Shown: positions 9,011 through 24,596 of the stretch, piece by piece
How the letters are laid out: every line of letters starts with the position of its first letter
Position numbering within the stretch: the stretch's first letter is position 1
Assembly: GCF_000008465.1 (NCBI RefSeq)
Contig: NC_006512.1
Location: forward strand, 540,001-572,000
Direction: 5' to 3'
DNA length: 32,000 nt
DNA from: Idiomarina loihiensis L2TR
Lineage (GTDB): Bacteria > Pseudomonadota > Gammaproteobacteria > Enterobacterales > Alteromonadaceae
The notes under the pieces: generated by a model
What the model saw: only the letters and a program-made list of their open reading frames with translations
Told to the model about the DNA's origin: nothing
Database searches by the model: none
Program-made: the position numbers and the translations under genes

Positions 9011-9877
9011 TTAAACAAACCGTTGCAGCAGCTTGGCGACCATGGGGTGTTCGAATGGGCGCTTCAGGGTTATGGCGTAAAAATGCTCGAACACATTGGG
9101 CAGAGTTAAATAGCGTTTCAATTGCCCGCTGGTCAACTCGTCCCGAACCACAACGTCCGGAATCACCGCCAGCGCGCCGGTATCCCTGGCTAACAGCCGC
9201 AGCATCGCCATATCGTCGGCCTCGGCCAGCACCCGCGGTTGCCAGTTGTATTCCGCACTGAGCATATCGAACGCCGCCCGCAGCGGCATATTTTCCGGCG
9301 GTAACACCCAGTTATTATTGCGCAAAGCCACATCGGTTAACTGCTCAATGTCACGACCCGGTGGCCCAATAACAGACACCGGCTGCCTCGCCAGTAAACG
9401 GCTCTGCCACAATTGCTTGTCGCTGCCGCGCACACTGGTATTGGCCAGCGCAATATCAATTTGATGATCCGCCAGCTCATTAAATAACTGATCCGGCGTC
9501 ATAGAATGCAGCCGGTACTGAACGTCCTGCTGATGCACCAGCTCGTGAATAAAAGCTTCCACAAAGTTACGCGACATAGTCGAGGCATGACCAATGCGCA
9601 CAACCAAATCACTGCCGTCCATGCCTTGCTTTAGCTGGTTAACCAGGTTCTCACCTTCGTGAAAAATTCGGTCGGCATACTGGCGCGCAATGTATCCGGC
9701 CTGAGTCAGTACCAACTTACGCCCTGTGCGCTCAAACAGCGGCGTACCCAGCCACTCTTCCAGTTGTTTTATCTGCGCCGACAACGCCGACTGCGACACA
9801 TGAAGCTTTTGCGCGGTTTGGGTTAAATGCCCGTTTTCTGCCACGTGCCAAAAGTAATAAAGGTGCTTATAATTCAT
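9011..9877 (-). CDS. LysR-family transcriptional regulator (NhaR-like N-terminus), divergent from the dab operon
   Basis: N-terminal HTH MNYKHLYYFWHVAENGHLTQTAQKLHVSQSALSAQIKQLE followed by a LysR substrate-binding domain. I chose the ATG at 9877 (GGTGAG upstream) over the GTG at 9889. Confidence 0.88.
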   Translation of the reverse strand: MNYKHLYYFWHVAENGHLTQTAQKLHVSQSALSAQIKQLEEWLGTPLFERTGRKLVLTQAGYIARQYADRIFHEGENLVNQLKQGMDGSDLVVRIGHASTMSRNFVEAFIHELVHQQDVQYRLHSMTPDQLFNELADHQIDIALANTSVRGSDKQLWQSRLLARQPVSVIGPPGRDIEQLTDVALRNNNWVLPPENMPLRAAFDMLSAEYNWQPRVLAEADDMAMLRLLARDTGALAVIPDVVVRDELTSGQLKRYLTLPNVFEHFYAITLKRPFEHPMVAKLLQRFV

Positions 9878-9892
9878 CGGGCTCACCAACCG

Positions 9893-9989: not shown

Positions 9990-11315
9990 ATGGCGGAATG
10001 GTTGACACTATCGGGCATACGACCGGTTTTACTGGTGCTGGTTGCAGTATTAGCATGGGTCGTTACGCGTTACGCCTTCAGAAATTTCCGGCTGGATCCG
10101 CGCCGCCGCTCATTCGTCACCAAGCTGGTTGGCTGCCTTATAGCGGTCTTCATTCTTATTGTCAGCAATAACCTTATTGTCTTTTTCGCCGCCTGGATGG
10201 CAATAAGCCTGCAGTTGCACAGCCTGCTTATGTTCTACCCCGAACGCGACCGCGCCGTACTGGCTGCGCACAAAAAATTCATTCTGGCACGCTGCTCCGA
10301 AACCTTTCTGGGCACGGCGTTTATTATTATGTACTTAACCACCGGCAGTCTGCAGCTGGACACGGTTTTGCAGCAGTTCGGCACTGCCCCCACGCACCTT
10401 TCTCAGCACATTGCCGCGCTGTGTCTGGTTATGGCGGCTCTCATTAAATGCGCCCAGCTACCCTTGCACGGCTGGCTCATTCAGGTGGTTGAAGCACCAA
10501 CCCCGGTTTCTGCTTTACTGCATGCCGGCATTATTAACCTGGGCGGTTTTTTGCTGCTGGCAACCGTACCACTATGGAGTAACAGCGCGCCGGCCGTATG
10601 GCTGCTGTGTCTGGTGTCGGCGGCGTCGTGCTGCTTTGCCGCCCTTATTATGGCCACCCGCATTAGCATAAAAGTGCGTTTAGCCTGGTCTACCAGCGCG
10701 CAAATGGGGCTTATGCTGCTGGAAATTGGTCTGGGTTATTACGACTTAGCTTTACTGCATCTGGTGGCGCACTCGGTTTATAAAGCCTATGCGTTTTTGT
10801 CGGTAAGCGAAGTCGCAATAATAAAGCAGCCTCAGGCCCGGTCGTTGTGGCGTATTGGTGTTGTCTTTATAGCGTTTCAGGGCATTATTGCCGCCGCCTG
10901 CTGGTGGTTTCTCGGTAACCCTAAATGGCTTCCGTCGGCGTTACTCGCCATGGCGCTCACCACCTTATGGATGAATCTGCATCAGAAGCTGCTGCGAATT
11001 GCGGTGTCGGCGTTAACTGTCGTAGTTTACCTTTTGCTGGGTGCGTTGGCGCATCAGGTTATTGAGCCGCAGCCACCGTTCAGCAGTGTCTGGCTGGAAC
11101 CCGCGGTAACCCTTATGTTCAACGTCTTCGCCTTTACTTATTGGCTGGTGCATCACACGCCATCGCATCGGCTTAGCCAGCGCTGGTTTATTACCCTAAA
11201 CGCCGGGTTGTATCTAGACGAATGGTTAACGCGGCTGGTGCTGTGGCTCTGGCCCAGCCACCCCATTCATTACTATCAGCGGCAGGGTCGCATTCAGCGG
11301 GAGAAACACTCATGA
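9990..11315 (+). CDS. dabB: DabB, the proton-conducting membrane subunit (NuoL/Mrp antiporter, PF00361-like) of a DAB inorganic-carbon pump
   Basis: Polytopic membrane protein. PTPVSALLHAGIINLGGF matches the NuoL/MnhA-type motif. Its stop overlaps the dabA start (ATGA at 11312-11315). GAGG lies 7 nt upstream of the ATG. Confidence 0.8.
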   Translation: MAEWLTLSGIRPVLLVLVAVLAWVVTRYAFRNFRLDPRRRSFVTKLVGCLIAVFILIVSNNLIVFFAAWMAISLQLHSLLMFYPERDRAVLAAHKKFILARCSETFLGTAFIIMYLTTGSLQLDTVLQQFGTAPTHLSQHIAALCLVMAALIKCAQLPLHGWLIQVVEAPTPVSALLHAGIINLGGFLLLATVPLWSNSAPAVWLLCLVSAASCCFAALIMATRISIKVRLAWSTSAQMGLMLLEIGLGYYDLALLHLVAHSVYKAYAFLSVSEVAIIKQPQARSLWRIGVVFIAFQGIIAAACWWFLGNPKWLPSALLAMALTTLWMNLHQKLLRIAVSALTVVVYLLLGALAHQVIEPQPPFSSVWLEPAVTLMFNVFAFTYWLVHHTPSHRLSQRWFITLNAGLYLDEWLTRLVLWLWPSHPIHYYQRQGRIQREKHS

Positions 11316-13585
11316 GCACAGCGAATCGTTTAGCGACTATTGCCGGGCAGGTGAGTAAAGCCATTGCGCCGCAGTGGCCGTTGTCTCAGTGGATAGCGGT
11401 TAACCCCTTCTGGCATTACCGCCAACAGCCGGTAGCCGGTGTTGCTGCGCACTGGCGTTACAGTGCCGGAACACGTTTGCTCATGAGCCCGGACTTTTAC
11501 TGGCAACAATGGCAGCAAAACCGAATAGACGCAGCGCTGGTCACCAACAAAATGGTAAACGAGCTGGAGCAGCGCTCCCTGCTAAAAGCGCAACTGCCGC
11601 AGTGGCGTAACCTCAGCCGGTTGGTGGACAAATACACGCGGCGCCGCCGCAAAATGCGCTGGAACGACGAGGTGGTGCTGCAAATTAGTCAAACCTGTGG
11701 CTTATTCATGCAGTTTCCAACCCGCTTTCAGCAGGCCGGTAAAGACAGTTCGTTGTATCAGCATTGGCTGACTATTTCGCGTGCCGATCGCGGCATTGAA
11801 ACCTTAATGGACGAGGCTGAACTCACCGAATTGTTCGCACAATTGCCGGATGACCCACACAAGCTTATTCAAGTGTGCCATGACAACTTTTTAAGTGACG
11901 CGTCAGATTACGCTCTACGCTGTTACAGCCAGGCGCTTATCAGTGACTTATGGGGTTGGGCCGCGGCATTTTCCTATCAGGACGCTCGTCAGGACAGCCA
12001 GTGGGTATTCGAACTGCTGTGCATTCGGCTGGCCTGGGAATATATTCTGTGGCAGCTGGCCGAGCGCACCAATACTAAGGTTTATCAGCAGCTGCAGCAG
12101 GCGCTTAGCGCACAAGTTGAAAATTGTGAAGGGCAGGTGGCTCATATTGAGCAGCACAACAGCTTATTGTGGCAATGGCAGGCGGCTTACGAACGCTCGC
12201 AGCTAAACAGGTTGCAGTTTAAATCCGACACAGTAGAAGAGAGCAACGCGCCGGACGTGCAGGCAGTGTTTTGTATCGACGTGCGCTCAGAGCGTTATCG
12301 TCGTGCGCTTGAACAGGCCGGAAAAAGCCTGGGCAGCTACGTACAAAGCAAAGGCTTTGCCGGGTTCTTCGGTGTGCCGCTGGCCATTCAGCGCAAAGGT
12401 CGCGATGTTCCTCATGTACCGGGGTTACTGCAACCGGCGTACTACATTAAAGCACCGGCGCGTAAGCAATCGGTTGGTTCCTTATTAAGCAATATGTTCA
12501 ATGCGCCGGTCTCCATGTTTAGCGGCGTAGAGGCGCTGGGGTTAAGTAAACTGAAGTCCTTACTCACTGGTGTGCCCGGACAACTGGCTACGGCTAATAA
12601 TGCGTATATTGCCGACGGCAGCATTTGTGAGCACAACGGCGAGGCGTCAATGGAATCGCTGGTGGGCATTTGTCAGCAGGCTCTGGCCGGAATGCAGTTT
12701 ACCCGCTTCGCGAGGCATATTGTGCTGGTCGGGCATGGATCGCATCACAGCAACAATGCTCAACGAGCAGGACTTAACTGTGGCGCCTGCGGTGGTCAAA
12801 CCGGTGCGTTAAGTGCCCGGGTGTTAGTACGGCTGCTTAATAATCAGAATATTCGTGAGCATTTACGCGAGCAGGGCGTTGCTATTCCCGACGCTACTCA
12901 GTTCCATTCCGCTATGCATGAAACCGTAACCGATAAGGTTATCTGGCTGTCCAATACTGTTCCGGACAGCGTCAAACAAGTGTTCCGCGCAGCAACAGAA
13001 AAGCTAACCCAGGCCTGCGGCGAGTCAGAAAAAGACCGTAAAACACGTTCCGGCCATTGGGCTGAACTACGCCCGGAATGGGGGCTGGCTGACAACAACG
13101 TCTTATTTTTCGGACAGGCTGATCGGCTAACCTCGGCTGATACCATCGGCAGTAATTTTTTGCACGACTACAACAGTATCAATGACCCTGACGGAGAGCT
13201 GCTGGCTCAGCTCATGAGCGCTCCGGGGCTGGTCGCTAACTGGATAAACTGGCAGTACTACTGCTCAGTAACCGAGCCCAAACAACTGGGTAGCGGTAAT
13301 AAGTTGCTGCATAACCGGGTAGCTAACGACATTGGCGTTTTTGAAGGCAACGGTGGCGACTTGCGCCAGGGGCTGGCCTGGCAGTCGGTGCATAACGGTA
13401 GTGATTTTGTGCACCGGCCCATGCGCCTGCAGGTTATTGTCGAAGCCGACGAAGCCACCATTCAGCGGGCGCTGGCCAAGGCTGTCGCTTTTAACGAACT
13501 CTTTGAACAACAGTGGATCAATCTGCATCGACTGAACGCGCGAGGTGAACTATGTCCAGTGACAACACCAGTAACAGCAAAATGA
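11312..13585 (+). CDS. dabA: DabA (DUF2309), the beta-carbonic-anhydrase-like subunit of the DAB pump
   Basis: The large soluble protein contains FCIDVRSE (Cys/Asp) and GHGSHHSNN...LNCGACGG (His/Cys). This is the Zn-ligand pattern reported for DabA. The ATG at 11312 is ATGA-coupled to dabB, so I rejected the ORF-track start at 11222. Confidence 0.85.
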   Translation: MSTANRLATIAGQVSKAIAPQWPLSQWIAVNPFWHYRQQPVAGVAAHWRYSAGTRLLMSPDFYWQQWQQNRIDAALVTNKMVNELEQRSLLKAQLPQWRNLSRLVDKYTRRRRKMRWNDEVVLQISQTCGLFMQFPTRFQQAGKDSSLYQHWLTISRADRGIETLMDEAELTELFAQLPDDPHKLIQVCHDNFLSDASDYALRCYSQALISDLWGWAAAFSYQDARQDSQWVFELLCIRLAWEYILWQLAERTNTKVYQQLQQALSAQVENCEGQVAHIEQHNSLLWQWQAAYERSQLNRLQFKSDTVEESNAPDVQAVFCIDVRSERYRRALEQAGKSLGSYVQSKGFAGFFGVPLAIQRKGRDVPHVPGLLQPAYYIKAPARKQSVGSLLSNMFNAPVSMFSGVEALGLSKLKSLLTGVPGQLATANNAYIADGSICEHNGEASMESLVGICQQALAGMQFTRFARHIVLVGHGSHHSNNAQRAGLNCGACGGQTGALSARVLVRLLNNQNIREHLREQGVAIPDATQFHSAMHETVTDKVIWLSNTVPDSVKQVFRAATEKLTQACGESEKDRKTRSGHWAELRPEWGLADNNVLFFGQADRLTSADTIGSNFLHDYNSINDPDGELLAQLMSAPGLVANWINWQYYCSVTEPKQLGSGNKLLHNRVANDIGVFEGNGGDLRQGLAWQSVHNGSDFVHRPMRLQVIVEADEATIQRALAKAVAFNELFEQQWINLHRLNARGELCPVTTPVTAK

Positions 13586-13779: not shown

Positions 13780-13831
13780 CCACCCGCCTTGTCGCCGGAC
13801 ATGCCCACCATGTACCTGACATGCACGCCAT

Positions 13832-13887
13832 GTAGCCTGACATTTATGTCAGGTGAGATATTGGCCCTGACATAAATGTCAGGCTAC
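13832..13887. repeat. REPIN-like element of the same subfamily as 2215-2270, in inverted orientation; marks the left edge of the accessory island
   Basis: gtagcctgacatttatgtcagg + tgagatattggc + cctgacataaatgtcaggctac. The spacer is close to the reverse complement of the 2237-2248 spacer. A degenerate extra REP head, ccatgtacctgacatg, sits at 13808-13823. Confidence 0.85.
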
Positions 13888-13918
13888 ATTCACTCGATTG
13901 CGTGAATTAGGAGCTGCT

Positions 13919-14188
13919 ATGTTGTTAGAGGCGAAAAACACAAAGGTCATTGGAAAAGTAGCGAAAGTTGTGCGGCAACAGCAAAAGCTGGATCAGACAA
14001 CAGCTGGCGCTTTTGCAGGCTGTGGTATTAATTTTGTGAGTCAATTCGAAAACGGCAAGCCAACAGTGCAACTGGAAAAGGCCCTAAATGTACTAAATGC
14101 ACTTGGCATAAAAGTTTACTTAGACATTCCTGACAGCGCTTCGGGCGACAAGCTCACTGAATTAACCGGACGCCTCAATCATGAGTAG
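13919..14188 (+). CDS. XRE/HipB-like (y4mF-type) helix-turn-helix antitoxin
   Basis: AGGAG lies 5 nt upstream of ATG 13919. ..FVSQFENGKPTVQLEKALNVLNALGIKVYLDI matches the y4mF/HipB-type HTH pattern. It overlaps the start of the hipA remnant by 8 nt. Confidence 0.7.
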   Translation: MLLEAKNTKVIGKVAKVVRQQQKLDQTTAGAFAGCGINFVSQFENGKPTVQLEKALNVLNALGIKVYLDIPDSASGDKLTELTGRLNHE

Positions 14189-14505
14189 TTCACTTGTCGA
14201 AGAACGCCGTCTTGTCGTTTATATCAACGATAATATTGTCGGCGAACTGCGGGAGCATAATGGCTTATGGGCATTTGAATACGCCCTCGACTGGCTCAGT
14301 AAGCCGAATGCCTTTCCGCTCACTCCGTCGCTTCTTTTGCGGCAAGAAGCGCATATCGATACCGGCACCAAACGTCCTGTTCATTAACGGTTCCACGTGT
14401 TGCTATCGATTACATCCCGGAACCGGTCTACATTGTTGAACGTTTTGATCGTATTGGGCAAGTCACCCGGGAGGACGTGTTAGCTTTCGCGCATAAGCGC
14501 CATGT
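14181..14505 (+). pseudogene. Decayed hipA-family kinase toxin gene (N-terminal couple_hipA fragment plus out-of-frame ERFDR fragment)
   Basis: The first 68 codons (RRLVVYINDNIVGELREHNGLWAFEY..PLTPSL) match the HipA N-terminal domain and then hit a stop at 14385-14387. A second fragment from about 14400 reads ..PVYIVERFDRIGQVTREDVLAFA, which contains the HipA ERFDR motif. Full HipA proteins are roughly 400+ aa. The remnant runs straight into the 22-bp repeat array. Confidence 0.6.
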
Positions 14506-14508
14506 AGT

Positions 14509-14596
14509 TTTCAATTGGACGATTATAAACTTTCAATTGGACGATTATAAATTTTCAATTGGACGTAGATTGACTTACAATTGGTCGAAGTTTAAT
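14509..14596 (+). repeat. Four head-to-tail 22-bp repeats, core TTTCAATTGGACG (array A)
   Basis: Units start at 14509, 14531, 14553 and 14575, exactly 22 bp apart: tttcaattggacgattataaac / tttcaattggacgattataaat / tttcaattggacgtagattgac / ttacaattggtcgaagtttaat. Confidence 0.85.
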
Positions 14597-14613
14597 TAAA
14601 GGTGGCGACGCTG

Positions 14614-15858
14614 ATGAATAAACCCTTACTTGAGCGGTATACAAAGGAGAGTCTATTAGACGCTCTAGAAGACACTCCCGTTATACTCATACATGGCTCG
14701 CGACAATGCGGAAAAACAACGCTTGCTAAATCTGTTGGTGAAGTGCTGGGTTATGCCTACATTACTTTCGATGACGAAAACCAATTGGGCGCAGCAAAAG
14801 CTGATCCTGTTGGCTTTGTAAAAAGCTTGCCTGAGAAAACTATATTAGATGAAATTCAGCGCGTTCCTGAACTTTTCCTCTCAATAAAAGAGAGCGTAGA
14901 TGCTAACAGGGTGCCTGGTCGGTTTATTTTAACGGGATCTGCCAATGTTCTACTCTTACCTCAGTTGTCCGACTCTCTTGCTGGAAGAATGGAAATTATA
15001 CACCTAAGACCGCTAGCTCAGTGCGAAATTACAGGCCAAAAACCTAACTTTCTGGCGTCTCTATTTTCCGAAAGCTTATTCTCCGCTGTCACTAATAAAA
15101 AAACTGCTTCGCTGGGAAGCTCACTGGCCGATATCCTTGTCCAAGGAGGCTACCCTGCAGCCATTCAAAGAAAAGCAGCTAAACGTCGCAATGCTTGGTA
15201 TCGAGGTTACATTACAACTATTTTACAAAGAGATATTAAGGACTTAGCGAACATTAGAAACGTCAACTTGTTGCCAAAGCTGCTCTCGTTGGCCGCTTCA
15301 CAAACAGGACGGCTGTTTAACTCCAGTGAGCTAGCATCTCCATTTTCTGTTAGTCGCCCGACGGTTCGTGAATACCTGGCCTTACTTGAACAAATATTTC
15401 TTATTGAGGAATTATCTCCCTGGCACAGCAATCGAATTAGCCGCCTTATAAAAACCCCAAAGTTGCATCTATCGGATACCGGGCTTGCTAGTTCACTACT
15501 GGGGGTAAATGCTGACGAGCTTTGGAAAGATAAAGAATTATTGGGACAATTGCTGGAAACTTTCATTTATCAGGAGCTTAGAAAACATGCGAGTTGGCAT
15601 GATGAGGATCTGAAGTTCTACCACTTCAGAAACAAGGACAAAGTGGAAGTTGATATTATCATTGAGAAAGGCCGTTTAAAGGCAGGTATAGAAGTAAAAG
15701 CGGCGGCAACTGTAAAGCAGTCAGACTTCAAAGGCCTGATTAGACTTAAAGATGCCTGTAAAGGTGACTTCGCTGGTGGGATTGTTTTTTACGACGGGGA
15801 GCAAGTCCTGCCTTTTGGTGACAAACTTTACGCTGTTCCAATATCCCACCTGACGTGA
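14614..15858 (+). CDS. AAA_14/DUF4143-type ATPase with a PD-(D/E)xK-like C-terminal motif
   Basis: Walker A HGSRQCGKTT and Walker B-like TILDEIQ are present. The C-terminus reads ..KVEVDIIIEKGRLKAGIEVKAA (D...E-x-K). I preferred ATG 14614 (AAGGTGG upstream) to GTG 14602. Confidence 0.75.
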   Translation: MNKPLLERYTKESLLDALEDTPVILIHGSRQCGKTTLAKSVGEVLGYAYITFDDENQLGAAKADPVGFVKSLPEKTILDEIQRVPELFLSIKESVDANRVPGRFILTGSANVLLLPQLSDSLAGRMEIIHLRPLAQCEITGQKPNFLASLFSESLFSAVTNKKTASLGSSLADILVQGGYPAAIQRKAAKRRNAWYRGYITTILQRDIKDLANIRNVNLLPKLLSLAASQTGRLFNSSELASPFSVSRPTVREYLALLEQIFLIEELSPWHSNRISRLIKTPKLHLSDTGLASSLLGVNADELWKDKELLGQLLETFIYQELRKHASWHDEDLKFYHFRNKDKVEVDIIIEKGRLKAGIEVKAAATVKQSDFKGLIRLKDACKGDFAGGIVFYDGEQVLPFGDKLYAVPISHLT

Positions 15859-15868
15859 ACATCAGGTG
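15847..15868. terminator. Short hairpin that contains the stop codons of both convergent genes
   Basis: cacctga-cgtgaaca-tcaggtg, a 7-bp stem. TGA of the + gene (15856-15858) and TGA of the - gene (complement of 15862-15864) both lie in the loop or stem. The CCTGA/TCAGG arms resemble the REP core. Confidence 0.4.
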
Positions 15869-17253
15869 ACACTCACCCCATACCGCTCGCGGATCTTAGC
15901 CGCCAGTGCCAGCCGTGCATCGGCTTCGCCATGAATTAACCGTATGCGCTTAACCGGTTCTTCGGTGGCGTCAATAAAGTCCAGCAGCTCCTGCTGGTCG
16001 GCGTGGGCGGAGTAGCCGCCTAAGGTATAAATGCCGGCTTTAATCCAGACCCGCTCGTGGTCAAGCTCAACATAACCGCCGTCCGGGCCATATTGCTGAA
16101 TATCCCGCCCAGGCGTACCCGCTGCCTGATACCCGACAAACAGCACATCGGTGCGAGGGTCGGGCAATAAAGCTTTTAAGTAGTTAAGCATGCGTCCGCC
16201 GGTACACATACCGCTGGCAGCAATGACTATGCAAGGGTCACCGCTACTCTGCAAAAGGTTCACAATGCGCTCGTGTTCGCTGTGCTCATCTACCGTCAGC
16301 AAGCGGTCAAAATTAAGCGGATGGCGATCATCACTTAAACGCTTGCGAGCTTCTTCGTCCCATAAATTCTTCATTGTTCGGTATTGTTTTGTGAACTGCA
16401 CAGCCAGCGGGGAATCCAGAATAACGGTCATTTTATGCCAAACTTTATTCACCTCACCGGTTTCAGCTTCCTGCTCACGCGCGGTGTGAATAATGTCTTC
16501 CAGTTCGTACAGCAGCTCCTGAGTGCGACCAATACTAAAAGCCGGAATTAAAATAACGCCTTTGTTCTCCACACAACGCTCAACTACCGCCTTTAACCGC
16601 TGAGACCGATCAATGCGGGACTCATGGTTTTTGTCGCCGTAGGTGCTTTCCAGCAACAGAAAGTCAGCACGCTCTAATGGCGTAGGGTCGGGCAGTAGTG
16701 GCGTATTTTTGCAGCCTAAGTCACCAGAGAACACCACGCGGTAGTGGGTACTCACATTCTCAATTTCAACGTAGGCCGAACCCAGAATATGCCCGGCTTG
16801 ACGAAAACGTAGCTTAAAGCGCTCAGAGGCAAACTCAGTAGGCAGTTCAATCCATTTATCGTAAGCCGTAGGCCGCAGTTGGCGATGCAAACGCGCAATA
16901 ACCGCATCAATAATCTGGGCGTTTCGGGTTAACCCAATTTTCAGGGCGTCTTCAATAACCAGCGGCAGCAACAGTGCGGTAGCTTTGGTGCAGTATATGG
17001 GACCGACAAAGCCCGCAATAAGCAACCAGGGCAAACGGCCTACGTGGTCAATGTGGCAGTGAGTCACTACCAGCGCCTGTACCTTGCTTATATCAAAGTC
17101 TATTTCCTGGGCGTTAGAATTCGCGCCGGAACCCGAGGTTTCCGCCCCCTGAAACAGCCCGCAGTCAACTAAAAGTGAGTGGTCACTGTCTAAAAAAAGC
17201 TCGTGGCAAGAGCCCGTAACCCCTTCAAACGCGCCGTGGTGTATTACGTCCAT
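15862..17253 (-). CDS. MBL-fold beta-CASP family hydrolase (RNase J/CPSF73-like nuclease)
   Basis: HCHIDHVG (HxHxDH), ESTYG and GGYSAHADQQELLDFI (beta-CASP motif C region) are present. I preferred the start at the second Met (MDVIHHG; AAAGGAA 8 nt upstream). The ORF-track start at 17271 has no RBS. Confidence 0.8.
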   Translation of the reverse strand: MDVIHHGAFEGVTGSCHELFLDSDHSLLVDCGLFQGAETSGSGANSNAQEIDFDISKVQALVVTHCHIDHVGRLPWLLIAGFVGPIYCTKATALLLPLVIEDALKIGLTRNAQIIDAVIARLHRQLRPTAYDKWIELPTEFASERFKLRFRQAGHILGSAYVEIENVSTHYRVVFSGDLGCKNTPLLPDPTPLERADFLLLESTYGDKNHESRIDRSQRLKAVVERCVENKGVILIPAFSIGRTQELLYELEDIIHTAREQEAETGEVNKVWHKMTVILDSPLAVQFTKQYRTMKNLWDEEARKRLSDDRHPLNFDRLLTVDEHSEHERIVNLLQSSGDPCIVIAASGMCTGGRMLNYLKALLPDPRTDVLFVGYQAAGTPGRDIQQYGPDGGYVELDHERVWIKAGIYTLGGYSAHADQQELLDFIDATEEPVKRIRLIHGEADARLALAAKIRERYGVSVT

Positions 17254-17285
17254 GTGTTGGTTCCTTTCCATTGCTGATTATGGGC

Positions 17286-18110
17286 CTACATCGAATTCAA
17301 CTTTTCGGTTAAAAATTTCTGATAAGCAGTTAAGTCGAACAGGCTGGCGGTAACTAAGTGGTGGACGGGGATGGTCAGTGAGTATTGATTAAGAAAATCT
17401 TTTATCTGCAACTCAGTCGCATCAGACGAAAGCTCAGCCGAATAATGTTTTTCATAATGTTCAGTCAGTTGAAGCTCTAAGGTGCTTTCGTCTTGGTAAC
17501 CACTGTGCATAGGTACTAAAACAATATTACTGCATACACCGCGTGTAATATCACATCGAATTAGGTTTCCGATATAGACTTTTCGGTTGCTCAATACTAC
17601 TCGTACCAACATTCGTTTGTCAGGAGATTCATCGCCATTATGAGGAATGAAGTCATCCATTTCTAATGCTCTCAGCAGAAACAACTCGAGCTCGTCATCG
17701 ACTAGCTTGTGTATTAAGAATTTACTGTTATTTTGTTTCCAGTTAGCATCCGCTTTACTCTGAAATTTAGTAACGCTTAAAAAGGAAATTACTAAACCTA
17801 TAGTAAAAAGCAGAAGCACTGACGATTTGTCGGGCTCAACTCCTCCAGGTGAACCAGTGAGTGTTTGCATTGCAACCCATGCTGAAGATAGCGAACCTGA
17901 TACTACTAGTGTTATGAGTCCCCATAAAAGCAAGAGTAAAAAAGTAGCGAAGACAGCACCGAAAAGAATCACTGTACCGCTAATGAACAATGTAATAGCT
18001 AGCCTCGAGGGAACTAGACGGTTAAGTTTTAGTTTGCCAAGTTCGGTGGAGTTAAGGTTTGCATAACCTAAAACAGAGACAAGTAGAACAATAAGGGGAG
18101 TAACGACCAT
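17286..18110 (-). CDS. Hypothetical multi-pass membrane protein with a ~150-aa C-terminal soluble domain
   Basis: A strong RBS (AAAGGAGG) precedes the ATG. It has 3-4 hydrophobic helices in the first ~115 aa. I recognise no family for the C-terminal part. Confidence 0.6.
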   Translation of the reverse strand: MVVTPLIVLLVSVLGYANLNSTELGKLKLNRLVPSRLAITLFISGTVILFGAVFATFLLLLLWGLITLVVSGSLSSAWVAMQTLTGSPGGVEPDKSSVLLLFTIGLVISFLSVTKFQSKADANWKQNNSKFLIHKLVDDELELFLLRALEMDDFIPHNGDESPDKRMLVRVVLSNRKVYIGNLIRCDITRGVCSNIVLVPMHSGYQDESTLELQLTEHYEKHYSAELSSDATELQIKDFLNQYSLTIPVHHLVTASLFDLTAYQKFLTEKLNSM

Positions 18111-18415: not shown

Positions 18416-18459
18416 TTTCAATCAGCCGAAGCTTTACTTTCAATTAGCCGCAACTAAAA
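18416..18459 (+). repeat. Two head-to-tail 22-bp repeats, cores TTTCAATCAGCCG / TTTCAATTAGCCG (array B)
   Basis: Units start at 18416 and 18438, in the same orientation and phasing as arrays A and C. Confidence 0.8.
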
Positions 18460-18547
18460 GCGCACTAAAACCTATAAATGGTAAAACATTAAAACCTAGA
18501 AAACATAACGGGGTGACTGCCGTCAGTCTACAAATTTTAGTGTTATA

Positions 18548-18615
18548 GTTATGTATTAAATGGCATTTAATGCGACAGTTATGTCAAATTATTGTTTTTG
18601 CGCTATAGTTATGTC
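18548..18615 (+). promoter_or_regulatory. Three AGTTATGT direct repeats exactly 30 bp apart, plus an 8-1-8 palindrome, upstream of the Fic gene (candidate operator/promoter)
   Basis: AGTTATGT occurs at 18548, 18578 and 18608; copies 1 and 3 extend to TATAGTTATGT. ATTAAATGgCATTTAAT is at 18556-18572. TATAGT at 18605-18610 could be a -10 box 32 nt before the ATG. Confidence 0.35.
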
Positions 18616-18641: not shown

Positions 18642-20129
18642 ATGGCTGAATTGTATTTCTCAACAACAACAGAACAAAGTCGCGAATTGACTCGCCGGGA
18701 GAAAAAGGGCGAGCTAAAGCGCCTGTATCGGGGAGTTTATACTGATGCTAGTTACGAAGAGTTAACGAGTCTGGTTCTAAGAGACTGGGCTAAGATAGTT
18801 AATTATTTGCTACCTAACGCTATAGCGGCTTATAGAACGGCTCATGAACTACGTCCAGTAGAAGGCACCGTGTTTGTCGCTGATGCCGTGGCGGCGCGCA
18901 GAACCATCGATATTGCGTCCATTTTAACTATTTATATTTGGCCGGGTTCAACCAGCGACCTTGTCGAACCGTTTTTGCCCGAAATGAAGCGCTCCGCACC
19001 AGCTCGTCAGTATTTAGAAAACTTAACGGTGAGTCGCTCTAAAGTAAAAAAGAGCCTGGGCCAAAGTTGGGTGGAGGAGCGCCTGTGTATTGAACTTAAA
19101 CGAACCAATAATGAAGATAGTTTGAATCAGATACGCGACCAAGCACGAGTGTTTGCCAATAGACAGGGGTTTGAAACTGAGTTTGAAAAATTAAATGCTA
19201 TCATAAGCGCTTTGTTGACAACCCATTCAGGTGAATCGATATTAAAAACCGAAGTGGGCATGGCTAGTGCTAAGCAAGAACCGTTTGACGTGCATCGCAT
19301 TGCACTGTTTAAAGACCTGGCCAATTACCTTAAGCGCTGTCAGTTACCCAAATTACCTTATGAATACAATAAGTCTGGTTGGAATCATCTCGCTTTTTTC
19401 GAAAGTTATTTTTCAAATTACATAGAAGGCACAGAGTTTGAGATTGACGAGGCGGAACAAATCGTCTTCCAACGCAGTGAAATTAATAATCGACATGCAG
19501 ACAGTCATGATGTTCTTTCTATCTACGACCAGGTGGTCGACTACCAAGGCATGAGCATTACACCCGAAACACCTGACGAACTAATTAAAAGTCTGCAGCG
19601 CCGTCACTTCGAATTTTTGTTTGAGCGCCCCGACAAAAACCCCGGGCGATTTAAATCGAAAGTAAACAAAGCCGGTAGCAGCACTTTTGTAAGCCCAGAT
19701 GATGTCGTAGGCACACTAACGCAGGCATTTTCCATTTATAAGTCTGTGCCTGAGGGGCTAGCCAGAGCCATATTCTTGCAATTTTTAGTGTCAGAATGTC
19801 ATCCATTTGACGACGGTAACGGCCGGCTGTCACGTATAATGATGAATGCTGAGCTGCACGCAGCAGGCGAATACAAACTGATAGTACCGACAGTGCATCG
19901 AGACAGTTACTTAAACGGCCTTAGAAAAGCCACTCGCGATAGAAACTTTAAAACCCTGGTAAAAGTGTTCTACCAACTGCAACGCTATACCGCATCTATA
20001 GACTGGGCGGACTATGGTGAAGCAAGAGATACGATCGAAGCGCATAAAGCCCATTTGTTACCTGATGAAGGCATTGCTGATTTTAACCGGCAGATTCGGC
20101 AATACCGGTTTACTCCGCCGGTCACGTAG
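18642..20129 (+). CDS. Fic-family protein (AMPylase-type) with an internal inhibitory-helix motif and a long N-terminal extension
   Basis: Canonical Fic motif HPFDDGNGRLSR. The upstream SNYIEG fits the (S/T)xxxE(G/N) autoinhibition motif. The N-terminus ..KKGELKRLYRGVYTD resembles AbiEi-type wHTH antitoxin N-termini. The stop TAG is supplied by the GTAG of the following REP. Confidence 0.88.
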   Translation: MAELYFSTTTEQSRELTRREKKGELKRLYRGVYTDASYEELTSLVLRDWAKIVNYLLPNAIAAYRTAHELRPVEGTVFVADAVAARRTIDIASILTIYIWPGSTSDLVEPFLPEMKRSAPARQYLENLTVSRSKVKKSLGQSWVEERLCIELKRTNNEDSLNQIRDQARVFANRQGFETEFEKLNAIISALLTTHSGESILKTEVGMASAKQEPFDVHRIALFKDLANYLKRCQLPKLPYEYNKSGWNHLAFFESYFSNYIEGTEFEIDEAEQIVFQRSEINNRHADSHDVLSIYDQVVDYQGMSITPETPDELIKSLQRRHFEFLFERPDKNPGRFKSKVNKAGSSTFVSPDDVVGTLTQAFSIYKSVPEGLARAIFLQFLVSECHPFDDGNGRLSRIMMNAELHAAGEYKLIVPTVHRDSYLNGLRKATRDRNFKTLVKVFYQLQRYTASIDWADYGEARDTIEAHKAHLLPDEGIADFNRQIRQYRFTPPVT

Positions 20130-20181
20130 CCTGACACTTGTGTCAGGTGAGCTCTCGTTCCTGGCACAAGAGCCAGGCTAC
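20126..20181. repeat. REPIN-like element (subfamily CCTGACACTTGTGTCAGG) with a degenerate second arm
   Basis: gtagcctgacacttgtgtcagg + spacer + cctggcacaagagccaggctac. Confidence 0.75.
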
Positions 20182-20285
20182 ACAAACAGACGGAAAGCTA
20201 TTATCGAAAGATGTTTGATATCAATCCATTTTCTTTCGAGAAAGTCGTTTTCTGACACTTAAATCTACAATTACCTGTTATTTAA

Positions 20286-20329
20286 TTTCAATTGGACGGA
20301 GCCAAACTTTCAATCAGCCGCGATGCAAG
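20286..20329 (+). repeat. Two head-to-tail 22-bp repeats, cores TTTCAATTGGACG / TTTCAATCAGCCG (array C)
   Basis: Units start at 20286 and 20308. This array combines the core variants seen in arrays A and B. Confidence 0.8.
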
Positions 20330-20466
20330 CTGTCGTAGTCACTCCATAAACTCCTTGCAATCTTTACAAAACTTTTGCACTGTCTGTTTCTCTAGAATGT
20401 TAATAAAGTCCCAATTGATGTCACGGATAGGCTTTTACCGCCTAATATTATTTAAAAGGAATTTCA

Positions 20467-22932
20467 ATGAGTTGTGCAGCAGTTGGTGAGTTTATGGCTC
20501 ACCTGATCATATCCGACGAACATATTCATGCTGACCAAATTGTTATGCTCAGAGAGTTTATTGAATTATATGGTTTGGAGAATGATCAGGAGAAAATCTT
20601 CAAAGTATTAGAAGGAAAAGGAGAGGAGAGACTCCCTCAGCTTTATAAAGAATTAGAGCAACTCAGTAAGAAAGAACAAGAAATACTGATTGAAAACTCA
20701 GCCGCAATTGTCGGTTTTAATCGACATTTTGCAAAGCAAGAAAAGCAGGTAATCGCTACTCTATGCAAAGCTGCAAACATAGAGCCGTCAGAACTAATCG
20801 CCGCTGTAAATGACATTATCGAAAACTCGACAAGAGCCTTTAATGACAGGCTCGCTTCACCTGAGATCCAGGATAAATACAGTACGGTAAGCTTAAAGGT
20901 TCGTCGATTTTTTTCGAGGGGAGCCAAGCGAGAATACTTAACGACGAAAATAAAAGAAAGTGAACTGTCAGGGCCTGAGTATGGCAACGCAATAAAGAAG
21001 ACCGGTGAAATAGCAGAGAAGGACTGTCAGCTGGTTGAAGCTGAGCTTTCCAAAATCTTCTCCGCCTTAGAAAGCACCCGCAATGAATTTCAAAGCGTTA
21101 TCAAAGAGAACTCGATAGATAGAAACAAAGCCAGCGAAGACGAAGTTAATTTCCACACCTTTCTCGTTGATTTAAATGACCGGCTTGATAAGCAAGCAAA
21201 AGAAAGCAATGAAGAGTTAAAAGACCTGGTGGATAAGAAACGCCGGGCAAAAAATGCTTTTACTATCGCTCTTATGGGCAGAACAAAGGCGGGAAAGAGC
21301 ACTCTGCACTATGTTATGACCGGCGAAGGTAAAGAGTTTATAGGCGTAGGAGCTGAGCGGACAACCCGGTTTAATCGAGTTTACGAATGGGAAAACTTGA
21401 AACTAATTGACACCCCAGGTATTGGAGCTGCCGAAGCCGGGGGCCGCTCAGATGAAGAAATTGCGTTAAGCGTTGTGGATACCGCCGATGTTATTTGCTA
21501 CGTAGTAACGAGCGACTCAGTTCAAGAAGTGGAATTCAAGTTTTTATCTCAAATCCGTAATAGTAATAAGCCCGTTTTTGTTCTTCTGAACTACAAAGAG
21601 AATATAGAGTCGCCACCGCCTCAATATAAAAAGTTTGTCAAATCTCCACTGCACTGGTTTTCTCGTGACGATGAGAAAAATATACAAGGAACTGTTAACC
21701 GCATAAAGCGAGGCATCGAATCGTACTATGATGGTAACTCCGTCACGATAGTTCCTGTTCACCTAATGGCAGCAAAAATGGCAATGGATGATCGCTGCAA
21801 AGCTGACAAGACAGCTTTCCGCAGCGGTTCGCGAGTTGATAACTTTTTTAATGAAATCCGTGAAAACGTTATTGAATTAGGTCAACTAAGAAAGTCACAG
21901 ACGCTGCTTGATAATACGGCTTGCCGCTTGTGCCGAATGTTGTCTGTGGTTAGAGAAAAGCAAGAGAGCTCAGTAAAAGTAGCGAAGGATATAGAGAACA
22001 AACAGCAAAAACTTTTAAAGTTAATTGATAAGCAAGTAAAGAAAAATAAATCTGCATTTATTAGAGAACTCAAGCTTACTATGGAAAGCGAGCATGGTTC
22101 AGCTAAAGACTTTGCATCAGAAAACTATAAAGGCAAAAAGAAGGATATTGAACGCAACTGGAAAAAAGAAGCAGAGCGAATTGACCAGCAGTTGAAGGAA
22201 AAACTGGAAGTAAAATTGAAAGACTCGGCCGCTGTAGTCCAAGAAGCCGTAAATGAAGCAATGGAGGACATCGCGATAGGTTTTGACGCCATAAGAGAAG
22301 CGGACTTCGATGAGCAAAGTACGTTTAATACAAGTCGCTTGATGTCAGCTCTGGGAGCGTTAATGTCTACAGGTGGCGGAGCTGCCCTTATTATAATTGG
22401 TTCAATGTCGACTCCCGCAGGTTGGGTCGCAGCCGGATTCGTGGTTGTAGGGATATTCGCTGGTTTTTGCTCAGGCCTGGTAAAGTCGAAAGAGCGAAAA
22501 AGAAAAGAGGCTATTGATGCAATTCTTAAGCAAGCCAATAAAAACTTAGATGACCTGGAGCAAAGTTACACCGAGCAAGTGGATAAACTTTTTGAAGAGT
22601 TTCATGAAAAAGCCTCCAGACAATTATCTAGGGTGTTGTCTCGCGTGTCGGAGCAGTACCGAAACTCTGCAAATCTGCTTACACCGTATTGTAACTCGCT
22701 AAACAACGCCATTAATGAACTGAACCAACAGTTTGCTGTTCGCATCATTGAGTTCGCACGTGACGAGCAACTTCCCGAAGAGCGTATTGGTGAGTTAAAA
22801 GTCACTCGTGACTTAGGTAAGAAAACCGAAATTGAGACTAGTTTAAGGATTTCAGAGCAGGGCATACAAAGAGCGGAAAAAGCATTAAGAGAAAAACTAA
22901 CGGTAAAAACATTGGCAAAAGGTGTGCAATGA
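20467..22932 (+). CDS. Dynamin-like large GTPase with a TerB-like N-terminal domain and a C-proximal membrane hairpin
   Basis: G1 GRTKAGKST (nt 21277-21300), G3 DTPGIG and a G4-like NYKE are present, with long coiled-coil stalk segments. A hydrophobic hairpin ALGALMSTGGGAALIIIGSMSTPAGWVAAGFVVVGIFAGFCSGLV is encoded at about 22342-22482. The N-terminal ~130 aa has two TerB-like acidic helical repeats (AHLIISDEHIHADQIVMLREFI ; AAIVGFNRHFAKQEKQVIATLCKAANI). AGGA lies 7 nt before ATG 20467. Confidence 0.75.
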   Translation: MSCAAVGEFMAHLIISDEHIHADQIVMLREFIELYGLENDQEKIFKVLEGKGEERLPQLYKELEQLSKKEQEILIENSAAIVGFNRHFAKQEKQVIATLCKAANIEPSELIAAVNDIIENSTRAFNDRLASPEIQDKYSTVSLKVRRFFSRGAKREYLTTKIKESELSGPEYGNAIKKTGEIAEKDCQLVEAELSKIFSALESTRNEFQSVIKENSIDRNKASEDEVNFHTFLVDLNDRLDKQAKESNEELKDLVDKKRRAKNAFTIALMGRTKAGKSTLHYVMTGEGKEFIGVGAERTTRFNRVYEWENLKLIDTPGIGAAEAGGRSDEEIALSVVDTADVICYVVTSDSVQEVEFKFLSQIRNSNKPVFVLLNYKENIESPPPQYKKFVKSPLHWFSRDDEKNIQGTVNRIKRGIESYYDGNSVTIVPVHLMAAKMAMDDRCKADKTAFRSGSRVDNFFNEIRENVIELGQLRKSQTLLDNTACRLCRMLSVVREKQESSVKVAKDIENKQQKLLKLIDKQVKKNKSAFIRELKLTMESEHGSAKDFASENYKGKKKDIERNWKKEAERIDQQLKEKLEVKLKDSAAVVQEAVNEAMEDIAIGFDAIREADFDEQSTFNTSRLMSALGALMSTGGGAALIIIGSMSTPAGWVAAGFVVVGIFAGFCSGLVKSKERKRKEAIDAILKQANKNLDDLEQSYTEQVDKLFEEFHEKASRQLSRVLSRVSEQYRNSANLLTPYCNSLNNAINELNQQFAVRIIEFARDEQLPEERIGELKVTRDLGKKTEIETSLRISEQGIQRAEKALREKLTVKTLAKGVQ

Positions 22933-24596
22933 ACTTCTCAGAGAAAGCAGAAAGAATTACCTCACTAAAGACTCAAGTGTTCGAGGTATTAAATGAGTAT
23001 CCGGGCTACGAAAACCTGCGGAATAAGCTAAGTTCGGAGCTAGATGAAAAAGAACAAGACTCAAAACTTCGCCTTGTTTTCGCGGGCCAGTATAGCTCAG
23101 GTAAGTCTTCTATTATCTCGGCACTAACAGATAATAAAAGCATAAAAATAGACTCCGACATTGCGACGGATAAGTCTGAGGATTACGAGTGGCGATCGGT
23201 TACGTTAACCGACACTCCCGGGATATCAGCGGGCCGACCTGATCACGATAAGGTTACTCACCAAAGAATCCAGCATGCGGACATACTTGTTTATGTGGTC
23301 ACATACTCGCTATTCGACAATGTTCTTATAGAAGACTTTAAAAGGCTGGCGATTGATTACAACTACAAGCACAAAATGGTTTTAGTCGTTAATAAAATGT
23401 ATTCGGAGGAAGGCGAGTATGACCAGCTGTGTGAGACTTACCTCAAAAATTTAGAGCAACAGATAGGAAAAGAAACGATTCAGCTTATGCCTGTGGCATT
23501 TGTGTCTTCGGGTAATGCTTTGGAGGAGGATGCCGATTTTCATCCCTATGGTCATATGGATGACTTAGTAAAGTTGCTTGATGACATGATAGAAAAGAAT
23601 CAGTCGTTAGCAGGTGTTGAGGCTGTAGCTCAAATTATCGCTACACACATAGAAGACGAGCTGGCTACTAAGGTGGAAGGCACAACGAAGGAAGAGCAAT
23701 TACTTTTACAGCGCATTGAAAGAGTGATCTCTCAAATTAAAAAGGACGCCGAATCGGCACTGAGAGAAGAAGCCTCAAGAATAAAAGCATTAGCTAAAAG
23801 CATGGGCAGCGAAAATGCTTTAAATGTTGGAACTAGCGAGACACTAGAAGAGGATGTACAAGCGTCCTCTGAACTGCTTAACACAGAAGCACATAACGCA
23901 TTTGATAATTTGACAGCACGTTTTGATGAACTGGATAAAGAGCTTGATAGTGAATTGTCGGAGCTAAATGACAGCAACTTAGCTGAACAGTTTTTCATGA
24001 GGTTTGAAGAAAATTCCTCCGAGAATTCGCTAGGCGAGACTCCCGATATTGGCGATGCCGCTGATTTTGCCGTAGCGAATCAGCTGTCAGCGTTACTAGG
24101 TCGTGGGAGCGGAGCTGTCGCCAGTAAGGCTATGGGCGCAAAAGCGGGTGCCGGCTTGCTTAAAGCGAGCGGAGCCTCAGGTAGTTCAGTTCACCAAACG
24201 GTATTGCAAGTGGGTAAAGCTTTGGGAGTTAAATTTCAGCCGTGGCAGGCAGTTAATATCGCCAAAAACATCGGTAATGTGGCTAAAGTATTAGGCCCTA
24301 TTATGGCGGCATTGCCGATTATATTTGAAGGCATCGATATTTATAATGAAGAAAAAAGAGAGAAAAAAATAGCAGAAGCTCGCAGGAATATCCGCGAACA
24401 GTTTCAAGATGCAGGTGACCAGATAACCCAGCAAATGAAAGACTCCGCAGGCGAGTTTATAACTGCAAAGTATGGTCAGCTATTAGAGGAAATTAGTAAG
24501 CTACGGCGCGCCAGAATCAATGAAGCGCAAAATTTAGAAACTTGTGGTCAGAAGCTAAAGTCACTCTCCAATAGCCTTCGTGAAGTTTTGGTTTGA
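22929..24596 (+). CDS. Second dynamin-like GTPase, translationally coupled to the first
   Basis: ATGA overlap at 22929-22932. G1 GQYSSGKSS (nt 23085-23108), G3 DTPGIS and G4 NKMY are present. It has a helical stalk and a Gly/Ala-rich hydrophobic segment (GRGSGAVASKAMGAKAGAGLLKASGASGSS ... VLGPIMAALPIIFEGI). Confidence 0.75.
   Translation: MNFSEKAERITSLKTQVFEVLNEYPGYENLRNKLSSELDEKEQDSKLRLVFAGQYSSGKSSIISALTDNKSIKIDSDIATDKSEDYEWRSVTLTDTPGISAGRPDHDKVTHQRIQHADILVYVVTYSLFDNVLIEDFKRLAIDYNYKHKMVLVVNKMYSEEGEYDQLCETYLKNLEQQIGKETIQLMPVAFVSSGNALEEDADFHPYGHMDDLVKLLDDMIEKNQSLAGVEAVAQIIATHIEDELATKVEGTTKEEQLLLQRIERVISQIKKDAESALREEASRIKALAKSMGSENALNVGTSETLEEDVQASSELLNTEAHNAFDNLTARFDELDKELDSELSELNDSNLAEQFFMRFEENSSENSLGETPDIGDAADFAVANQLSALLGRGSGAVASKAMGAKAGAGLLKASGASGSSVHQTVLQVGKALGVKFQPWQAVNIAKNIGNVAKVLGPIMAALPIIFEGIDIYNEEKREKKIAEARRNIREQFQDAGDQITQQMKDSAGEFITAKYGQLLEEISKLRRARINEAQNLETCGQKLKSLSNSLREVLV

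Follow-up and report, generated by a model that had tools for sequence, protein, structure and literature searches.

A Four-Unit 22-bp Repeat Array as the Probable Self-Operator of a PDC-S01 ATPase–Nuclease Gene in Idiomarina loihiensis

The window analyzed here, a 32,000-nucleotide stretch of the Idiomarina loihiensis L2TR genome (GCF_000008465.1, contig NC_006512.1, positions 540,001 to 572,000 of the forward strand), contains three arrays of a 22-bp direct repeat, and the longest of them, array A, stands immediately before the gene of an ATPase with a predicted nuclease domain that belongs to the candidate defense family PDC-S01. Judging from the sequence and its relatives, we consider it probable that array A is the cognate self-operator of this ATPase, bound by the protein's own winged helix, and that the two shorter arrays, B and C, are relics of earlier ATPase modules.

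Array A (14509..14596, + strand) consists of four 22-bp units starting at 14509, 14531, 14553, and 14575, the first three having the core TTTCAATTGGACG and the last the variant TTACAATTGGTCG, which departs from the core pattern by two mismatches. Arrays B (18416..18459, + strand) and C (20286..20329, + strand) are two-unit orphan arrays, with the cores TTTCAATCAGCCG at 18416 and TTTCAATTAGCCG at 18438 in the former and TTTCAATTGGACG at 20286 and TTTCAATCAGCCG at 20308 in the latter. A first-pass annotation of this DNA had described these eight units, all on the + strand with a period of exactly 22 bp inside each array, and had placed each array upstream of a + strand gene (the ATPase with its ATG at 14614, Fic at 18642, and LeoBC at 20467); both descriptions agree with the sequence, as does its remark that array C combines the A and B core variants.

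With up to one mismatch allowed, the core pattern has eight matches in the window against 0.39 expected, a count reached in none of 100 shuffles. Seven of these are array units and the eighth is an unrelated site at 9116. The exact 13-mer occurs at seven sites in the whole 2.84-Mb genome, a single contig, all of them array units and none on the reverse strand, so that the earlier statement that the core has no inverted copy extends from the window to the genome; there is just a weak inverted look-alike with a 1-nt insertion (TCAATTGGGACTTTATTAAC, 20395-20418, − strand) between array C and leoBC, which could be due to chance. A weight-matrix scan of the genome returned no clustered reverse sites and one extra lone site with one mismatch about 5 kb past the window (TTTCAATCAGTCG, genome position 577316, + strand, 5.3 kb past the window end), in a very AT-rich polysaccharide region; having no phased partner, it is probably a chance occurrence. 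In this genome the motif is confined to arrays, and a search of 199 further genomes of the family gave no phased core pair. It is therefore not a common dispersed repeat, which the first-pass annotation had named as a finding that would refute its observation.

The array and the ATPase gene form a module that is conserved across many bacterial phyla, plasmids, and viral contigs. A scan of public genomes, one per species, for two phased cores gave at least 120 loci; those listed hold 123 arrays, 113 of which have at least 500 bp of downstream DNA. Among the matches listed, 71 of these 113 arrays are followed on the same strand by a homolog of the ATPase (41–71% identical) that starts −15 to +92 bp past the last unit. 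Arrays upstream of the ATPase have three to five units in this set, mostly four, and arrays lacking it mostly two; the hosts include Alpha-, Beta-, Gamma-, and Deltaproteobacteria, Opitutae, Gemmatimonadota, Binatia, Acidobacteriota, Bacteroidota, and others. Clustering of the open reading frames (ORFs) at all listed loci yielded no other neighbor gene shared across lineages, leaving the ATPase as the sole shared gene. An equivalent scan of viral contigs (TTTCAATNNGNCG-N9-TTTCAATNNGNCG) returned 10 loci, and one of these has four units directly before a protein 46% identical to the window ATPase. Apparent double arrays at three public loci (L037, L083, and L114) are each a single array with a degenerate middle unit shifted by 1 nt.

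The association also holds when it is approached from the protein. Five of six viral homologs (≥40% identity) carry 22- or 23-bp phased arrays, as do all four plasmid homologs (Marinobacter pMAQU02, Brucella anthropi, Agrobacterium vitis, and A. tumefaciens pAt), which makes 9/10 for the protein-found homologs together. The co-inheritance of array and ATPase is thus strong in public, viral, and plasmid loci. Cores at the protein-found homologs have drifted (e.g., TCCCAAT.AGC.G and TTCCCA....CACG), and different ATPase clades own different private arrays: a clade 31% identical to the window protein carries either palindromes or four units of 23 bp whose core is TTTGGATTATTC, and distant 390-aa paralogs in Rhodobacteraceae have a conserved palindrome, TTGCAAATCTTCC-N7-GGAATAAATGCAAGG, in place of an array. 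The N-terminus of the predicted recognition helix varies together with the core, SRPT(I/V)REY pairing with ..G(A/C)CG, NHVTTQKY with ..GTCG, and NHKTSQRY with TCCCAAT.

The units of array A overlap the predicted core promoter of the ATPase gene, as sites of a self-operator should. A consensus scan picks TTTTCA at 14552 and TACAAT at 14576-14581 (9/12 matches), giving a predicted sigma-70 promoter (14552..14581, + strand) whose −35-like element, TTTTCA/TTTCAA, lies at the beginning of unit 3 and whose −10 hexamer is in unit 4; transcription would begin near 14588. The Shine–Dalgarno sequence AAAGGTGG (14598..14605, + strand), read directly from the sequence, lies 8 nt before the ATG. In the clade 53–71% identical to the window ATPase, the last unit is mostly TTAC(A/G)NT (17/19, counted by eye), in which one T-to-A change of the core makes a TAnnnT −10 box, and the penultimate unit often reads TTGCAA, 23 bp from that box start-to-start and therefore at the canonical 17-bp spacer. 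Because the clade-wide promoter pair and that of the window coincide, the seemingly degenerate fourth unit of array A appears to be a conserved, functional variant. In an alpha-type clade the hexamers are located in the tails of the units (TTGAC, followed by T(G/A)TAC) and the 5′ untranslated region (5′UTR) is formed by the last unit; an occupied array would cover the promoter and the start site there too.

The ATPase itself (14614-15858, + strand), a protein of 414 aa, has an N-terminal AAA_14 domain (Pfam, 2e-27) and a C-terminal DUF4143 domain (7e-49), the arrangement that defines PDC-S01, and the PADLOC PDC-S01 model PDLC04790 matches it end to end (residues 1-413, E 1e-163). An AlphaFold2 model built from 39 homologs (pLDDT 92, pTM 0.92) predicts an AAA+ domain, a winged helix-turn-helix (HTH) at about 215-290 with its recognition helix at about 248-260, and a C-terminal alpha–beta fold at 300-414, the winged helix sitting between the AAA+ and nuclease domains. 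E345, V346, D347, and K362 do not vary across the 39 homologs, and conservation exceeds 90% at E360 and V361 (motif EVDIIIE...GIEVK); from fold and motif the C-terminus is assigned to the PD-(D/E)XK nucleases, its catalysis being putative. Foldseek matched the model to the archaeal AAA+/winged-helix structures 2fna and 2qen, STAND ATPases, the Orc1/Cdc6–DNA complex 2qby, clamp loaders, and Can2 nucleases, the last attributed to the C-terminal nuclease fold. The Orc1/Cdc6 structure, solved on origin DNA, is one of the top matches. A sequence search against solved structures returned P-loop noise alone. A near-unit, TTTCTGTTAGTCG, at 15344-15356 overlies codons 244-248 (F-S-V-S-R) at the predicted start of the recognition helix and recurs with one to two mismatches in four genes of the clade, most likely as a coding coincidence.

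DUF4143 was listed as a PD-(D/E)XK fold of unassigned function in a survey of these nucleases (PMC3424549), and the combination of AAA+ and PD-(D/E)XK domains has been described for the PDC-S01 family, COG1373 (PMC3424549; PMC12988326). PDC-S01 reportedly ranks fourth in frequency among the candidate defense genes in prokaryotes and is still unvalidated (PMC12988326). Our literature search on DUF4143, PDC-S01, COG1373, and AAA_14 found no paper describing upstream arrays, and the searchable papers on PDC-S01 treat it as a single gene, with no mention of a cognate repeat array, a DNA-binding role, or orphan arrays. To this the window adds a clade of 22-bp TTTCAAT..G.CG arrays spread over many phyla, a predicted promoter made from mutated cores, and orphan arrays with decay intermediates.

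We propose that each 13-bp core would be read by the ATPase's winged helix and that units two helical turns apart would align the monomers head-to-tail along one face of the DNA. The AAA+ domains could then polymerize along the array, in the manner of Orc1/Cdc6, DnaA, or iteron-binding Rep proteins, and the occupied units would cover the −35 and −10 hexamers and the start site, shutting off the ATPase's own promoter. Such self-repression would keep a potentially dangerous nuclease low and buffered. At arrays B and C the genes and the promoter-proximal units would have been deleted or replaced by other defense cassettes (Fic and Eleos, respectively). Among the roles that the first-pass annotation had listed for multicopy 22-bp sites, that of a cooperative operator is retained for array A only, which is conserved upstream of the ATPase gene and overlaps its promoter; it is not supported for B and C.

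The proposal resembles two known arrangements. R6K pi, pPS10 RepA, and P1 RepA are winged-helix Rep initiators of theta plasmids and adjoin iterons of about 22 bp. Common to these and the window are direct repeats of this length, two helical turns apart, beside the gene of a presumed winged-helix binder, and an array overlapping the promoter of that gene, which predicts autoregulation. The present case differs in lacking a Rep protein, origin features, and a replicon, in a binder with an AAA+ motor and a nuclease fold, and in promoter hexamers built from the repeat cores themselves. Orc1/Cdc6 with its origin recognition boxes (ORBs) and DnaA with its boxes likewise have an AAA+ domain followed by a winged helix and arrayed sites beside their own genes. 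Their likeness to the window protein is, however, one of fold alone (11–15% identity, TM 0.26–0.45), and the window ATPase adds a nuclease domain and shows no sign of replication initiation.

We regard it as very improbable that the arrays are themselves plasmid-type iterons at an origin served by the ATPase, or that they are bound by a different host protein, for instance the HipB-like HTH protein encoded at 13898. Direct repeats of 22 bp beside an AAA+/winged-helix gene do mirror the Rep/iteron and Orc1/ORB layouts (partly general knowledge), and the ATPase family is common on plasmids (173 records), but there the ATPase gene sits among cargo, away from repC/rep, and the family as a whole is a single gene scattered in defense islands. 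The locus in the window is chromosomal, no Rep family was found, and no AT-rich unwinding element or DnaA box is seen by eye next to the array; the iteron interpretation of the first-pass annotation thus fails as a membership, although the architecture is still iteron-like. The HipB-like protein, which that annotation had proposed for binding assays, is not a likely binder, since the arrays accompany the ATPase gene rather than hipB, a gene missing from nearly all array loci.

A transposon origin, in which the arrays would be ends of a Tn7-, Mu-, or Tn402-type element or stacked remnants of such ends, appears to us extremely improbable. The four directly repeated 22-bp units, contiguous and bordering a low-GC island, recall the Tn7 right end with its contiguous 22-bp TnsB sites (general knowledge), a TGT stands 6 nt before unit 1, and the GC content drops from 0.53 to 0.44 at about 14000. 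However, the genome holds no inverted copy that could form a second end, the terminal TGT...ACA pair is missing, and neither a Rep gene nor a DDE transposase nor TnsA/B/C-like genes were found in the island, the answer to a check that had been suggested from the sequence alone. The rve (DDE) matches lie at 53, 1305, 1733, and 1742 kb of the genome and the arrays at 554–560 kb, a distance of about 500 kb to the nearest. Unlike transposon ends, moreover, the array keeps to the start codon of a single gene family at more than 70 unrelated loci, over many phyla, and carries its promoter. An integrative att site with arm-type repeats, which would call for a tyrosine or serine recombinase bordering the island and for a tRNA or another att target, does not fit either, in that no tRNA or Rfam family was found in the window and the nearest tyrosine recombinase (Phage_integrase match) is about 143 kb from the arrays.

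Arrays B and C most likely represent the promoter-distal ends, two units each, of decayed ATPase modules, because sister strains preserve what look like intermediates of such a decay and because the Fic gene downstream of array B has orthologs without an array. We compared 26 genomes of the genus (labels used here: G000, G078, G184, G206, G211, G212, and G220), in which the DNA separating dabA from the polysaccharide genes is hypervariable; its minimal form is dabA, beta-CASP, a repetitive extragenic palindromic (REP) element, and ugd. The ATPase is found in 5/26 genomes, intact in G000 and G220, as codons 55-413 in G078, as codons 299-349 in G206, and as fragments in G212. Arrays are present in these five genomes and in G184, where a relic keeps just four ATPase codons.

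In G078 the left flank of array C (window 20252..20285, + strand) is followed by two units, the second of which is fused to the ATPase gene at an internal unit look-alike, AACCAATTGGGCG (window 14779..14791, + strand, codons 56-60), with the removal of codons 1-54. In G206 (L088) two to three units are joined to ATPase codons 299-349, with a different Fic gene beyond. In G184 three units, the 5′UTR, the ATG, and four codons are joined to the right flank of array C (20331..20382, + strand), after which comes an unrelated gene; this locus is a nearly complete deletion of the ATPase gene. Array C therefore has its left flank in common with one strain (G078) and its right flank with another (G184). 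Outside the genus, a Moraxellaceae locus (L087) combines an intact module, its ATPase 71% identical to that of the window, with a second array 2.2 kb downstream in the same orientation, followed by the UTR and 10 codons fused at about codon 287, and at five more loci in other phyla a unit is joined to the interior of the ATPase gene. One pseudogenized ATPase copy, in G212 (L157, 2264-2330), has an array that is short of exactly one 22-bp unit, the −10-bearing one, relative to G220 (L152), which looks like slippage between units.

The distance from array B to Fic downstream is 183 bp, and about 75 bp separate the array from downstream repeats that belong to Fic itself; array C lies 138 bp upstream of the Eleos operon. 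The Fic repeats (18535-18614, core A(T/C)AGTTATGT) are three in number, phased at 30 bp, and directly upstream of the gene; they probably serve as operator for the AbiEi-like HTH at Fic's own N-terminus. The Fic orthologs of G211 (97.6% identical) and G184 (89%) have no array, just three repeats of their own, phased at 30 bp, behind a REP element. G220 has a 61-bp homolog of array B (93% identity) with a different left flank, and there the Fic ORF is missing and two of the Fic repeats persist. Array B as a part of the Fic module was accordingly rejected, it being absent from the G211 and G184 orthologs and from 7/7 plasmid Fic loci. Searches for ATPase coding remnants after arrays B and C in the window gave chance-level tblastn matches alone. 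The resident ATPase may still bind both arrays in trans, since their cores lie within the range of the clade's cognate arrays.

Such binding would be the basis of a regulon in which the ATPase, bound at all three arrays, controls its own gene together with Fic and the Eleos operon as a master switch of the defense island, a possibility to which we give a low but real chance. It draws on the B and C cores, which fall within the variants mixed in the clade's cognate arrays, on the coexistence of intact ATPase and orphan arrays in G000 and G220, on orphan arrays elsewhere, which stand upstream of defense-type genes (DUF4172-Fic, a 503-aa Fic, HsdR, and PP2C), and on orphan units in Rhodobacteraceae, whose conservation exceeds that of their flanks. 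At about 11 Rhodobacteraceae loci a two-unit array follows a DUF1403–ScpB pair and precedes a DUF4172-Fic gene by 165 bp, and at related loci the same site is filled by a four-unit array and the ATPase. The ATPase and Fic forms are alternative cassettes between shared flanks, with homology ending at +35 to +41, just past the core of unit 2, and the upstream and downstream haplotypes reassort across the array. The site after the DUF1403 and ScpB-like genes behaves as a cassette slot; the pair was seen on alphaproteobacterial plasmids and chromids, at L178, L181, L182, and about 20 Rhodobacteraceae loci, repeatedly preceding either a PDC-S01 module or DUF4172-Fic. On Rhizobium leguminosarum pR132503 an "ATP-binding protein" is encoded directly upstream of Fic.

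Against the regulon, the G211 and G184 Fic genes do without an array, as do all seven Fic loci found by protein on plasmids, including Ruegeria PR1b with the same ScpB–Fic arrangement. B and C also lack the promoter-bearing units and lie 140–180 bp upstream of the start codons, and nothing in the compared genomes indicates that Fic or Eleos needs them. The shared regulator of three modules that the first-pass annotation had considered favored by promoter-proximal position is weakened by these results.

Several observations count against the self-operator and its relics as well. In Rhodobacteraceae the orphan units are 0.93–0.98 identical and their flanks 0.42–0.66, even at spacer positions that were left free in the search, and the cognate ATPase is missing from five orphan-plus-Fic genomes; conservation of this kind is not obviously expected of plain relics. 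The orphan-unit conservation is partly an ascertainment effect, and the same five genomes also lack the very protein that a regulon requires. The public loci were found via the motif itself, which inflates the apparent conservation of the core. The covariation of recognition helix and core covers about five clades, few in number and confounded by shared ancestry, and the promoter prediction in the window is a mere 9/12 consensus match.

The first-pass annotation had also taken the position of the arrays at module junctions as favoring a recombination or mobility role, and had proposed a comparison of strains for precise boundaries. Breakpoints do fall at or inside the arrays, where homology with relatives breaks, and the hipA gene upstream of array A is truncated as described, ending at 14493, 15 bp before unit 1, although it was already holed by two internal deletions. 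These facts do not demonstrate a recombination system, and the decay of ATPase modules explains them best. In the stronger form of the idea, PDC-S01 would polymerize ATP-dependently on the array and then cut beside it, so that arrays, orphans included, would be active hot spots at which the ATPase–nuclease synapses sites and exchanges cassettes without a recombinase. We think this improbable, for all that it would explain the mosaic junctions in both Idiomarina and Rhodobacteraceae and the retention of orphan arrays after gene loss.

Its attraction lies in several patterns. The DNA common to the window module and G220 (G220:C9) is the array and the ORF alone (window 14528-15856); the Rhodobacteraceae cassettes swap between the same flanks with a left breakpoint at +35 to +41 after the core of unit 2, and haplotypes on either side reassort; a unit is joined to the interior of the ATPase gene at no fewer than seven independent junctions, several of which follow directly on the ...CG of a core; and the protein has a predicted nuclease fold. 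Other points speak against it. The fused junctions carry short microhomologies (CAATTGG, GACG, and TCG) typical of common illegitimate recombination, and a conserved island of identity would draw homologous crossovers passively. The array fills most of a short intergenic space, and breakpoints inside it are therefore expected by chance, while arrays could be found only if they had kept at least two cores. There are no target duplications and no second end, and unit look-alikes inside ATPase genes are not enriched (154 forward vs. 195 reverse).

The gene content of the region is that of a defense island. Upstream of the drop in GC content are a LysR-family regulator (9011-9889, − strand) and DabB and DabA (9990-13585, + strand), followed by the HipB-like HTH gene (13898-14188, + strand), which is intact, and the hipA remnant (14194-14493, + strand), which relative to strain G212 has gaps after 14284 and after 14461 and lacks its 3′ end. 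Beyond the ATPase are a beta-CASP nuclease (15862-17271, − strand) and a protein without an assigned family (17286-18110, − strand), then Fic of the PDC-S04/SoFic-like type (18642-20129, + strand), LeoBC and LeoA of Eleos (20467-24596, + strand), a JukA-like GTPase (24661-25941, − strand), an RtcR-like activator (26156-27769, + strand), and polysaccharide genes from 28049 (+ strand). The beta-CASP gene is 94% identical to one public match, from Idiomarina rhizosphaerae. The I. rhizosphaerae-like G206 has, at 4206-4743 of L160, a second beta-CASP gene in two fragments, codons 3-39 (100%) and 132-276 (74%), which lie divergently beside the array and truncated-ATPase relic, with a full beta-CASP gene 2 kb away. 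REP-like palindromic elements with CCTGACATTTATGTCAGG arms paired as hairpins occur at gene ends in the window (13830-13889, 15838-15871, and 20126-20182), the first having dozens of copies 85–97% identical across the genome and genus.

The array suggests that PDC-S01 is a sequence-specific DNA-binding machine, beyond a generic effector, and the phase-locked site on its promoter offers a defined ligand for binding, structural, and ATPase/nuclease work. Orphan arrays can serve annotators as a marker of decayed copies and of the history of defense islands, and, if the arrays were recombination hot spots after all, they would bear on how defense islands exchange cassettes.

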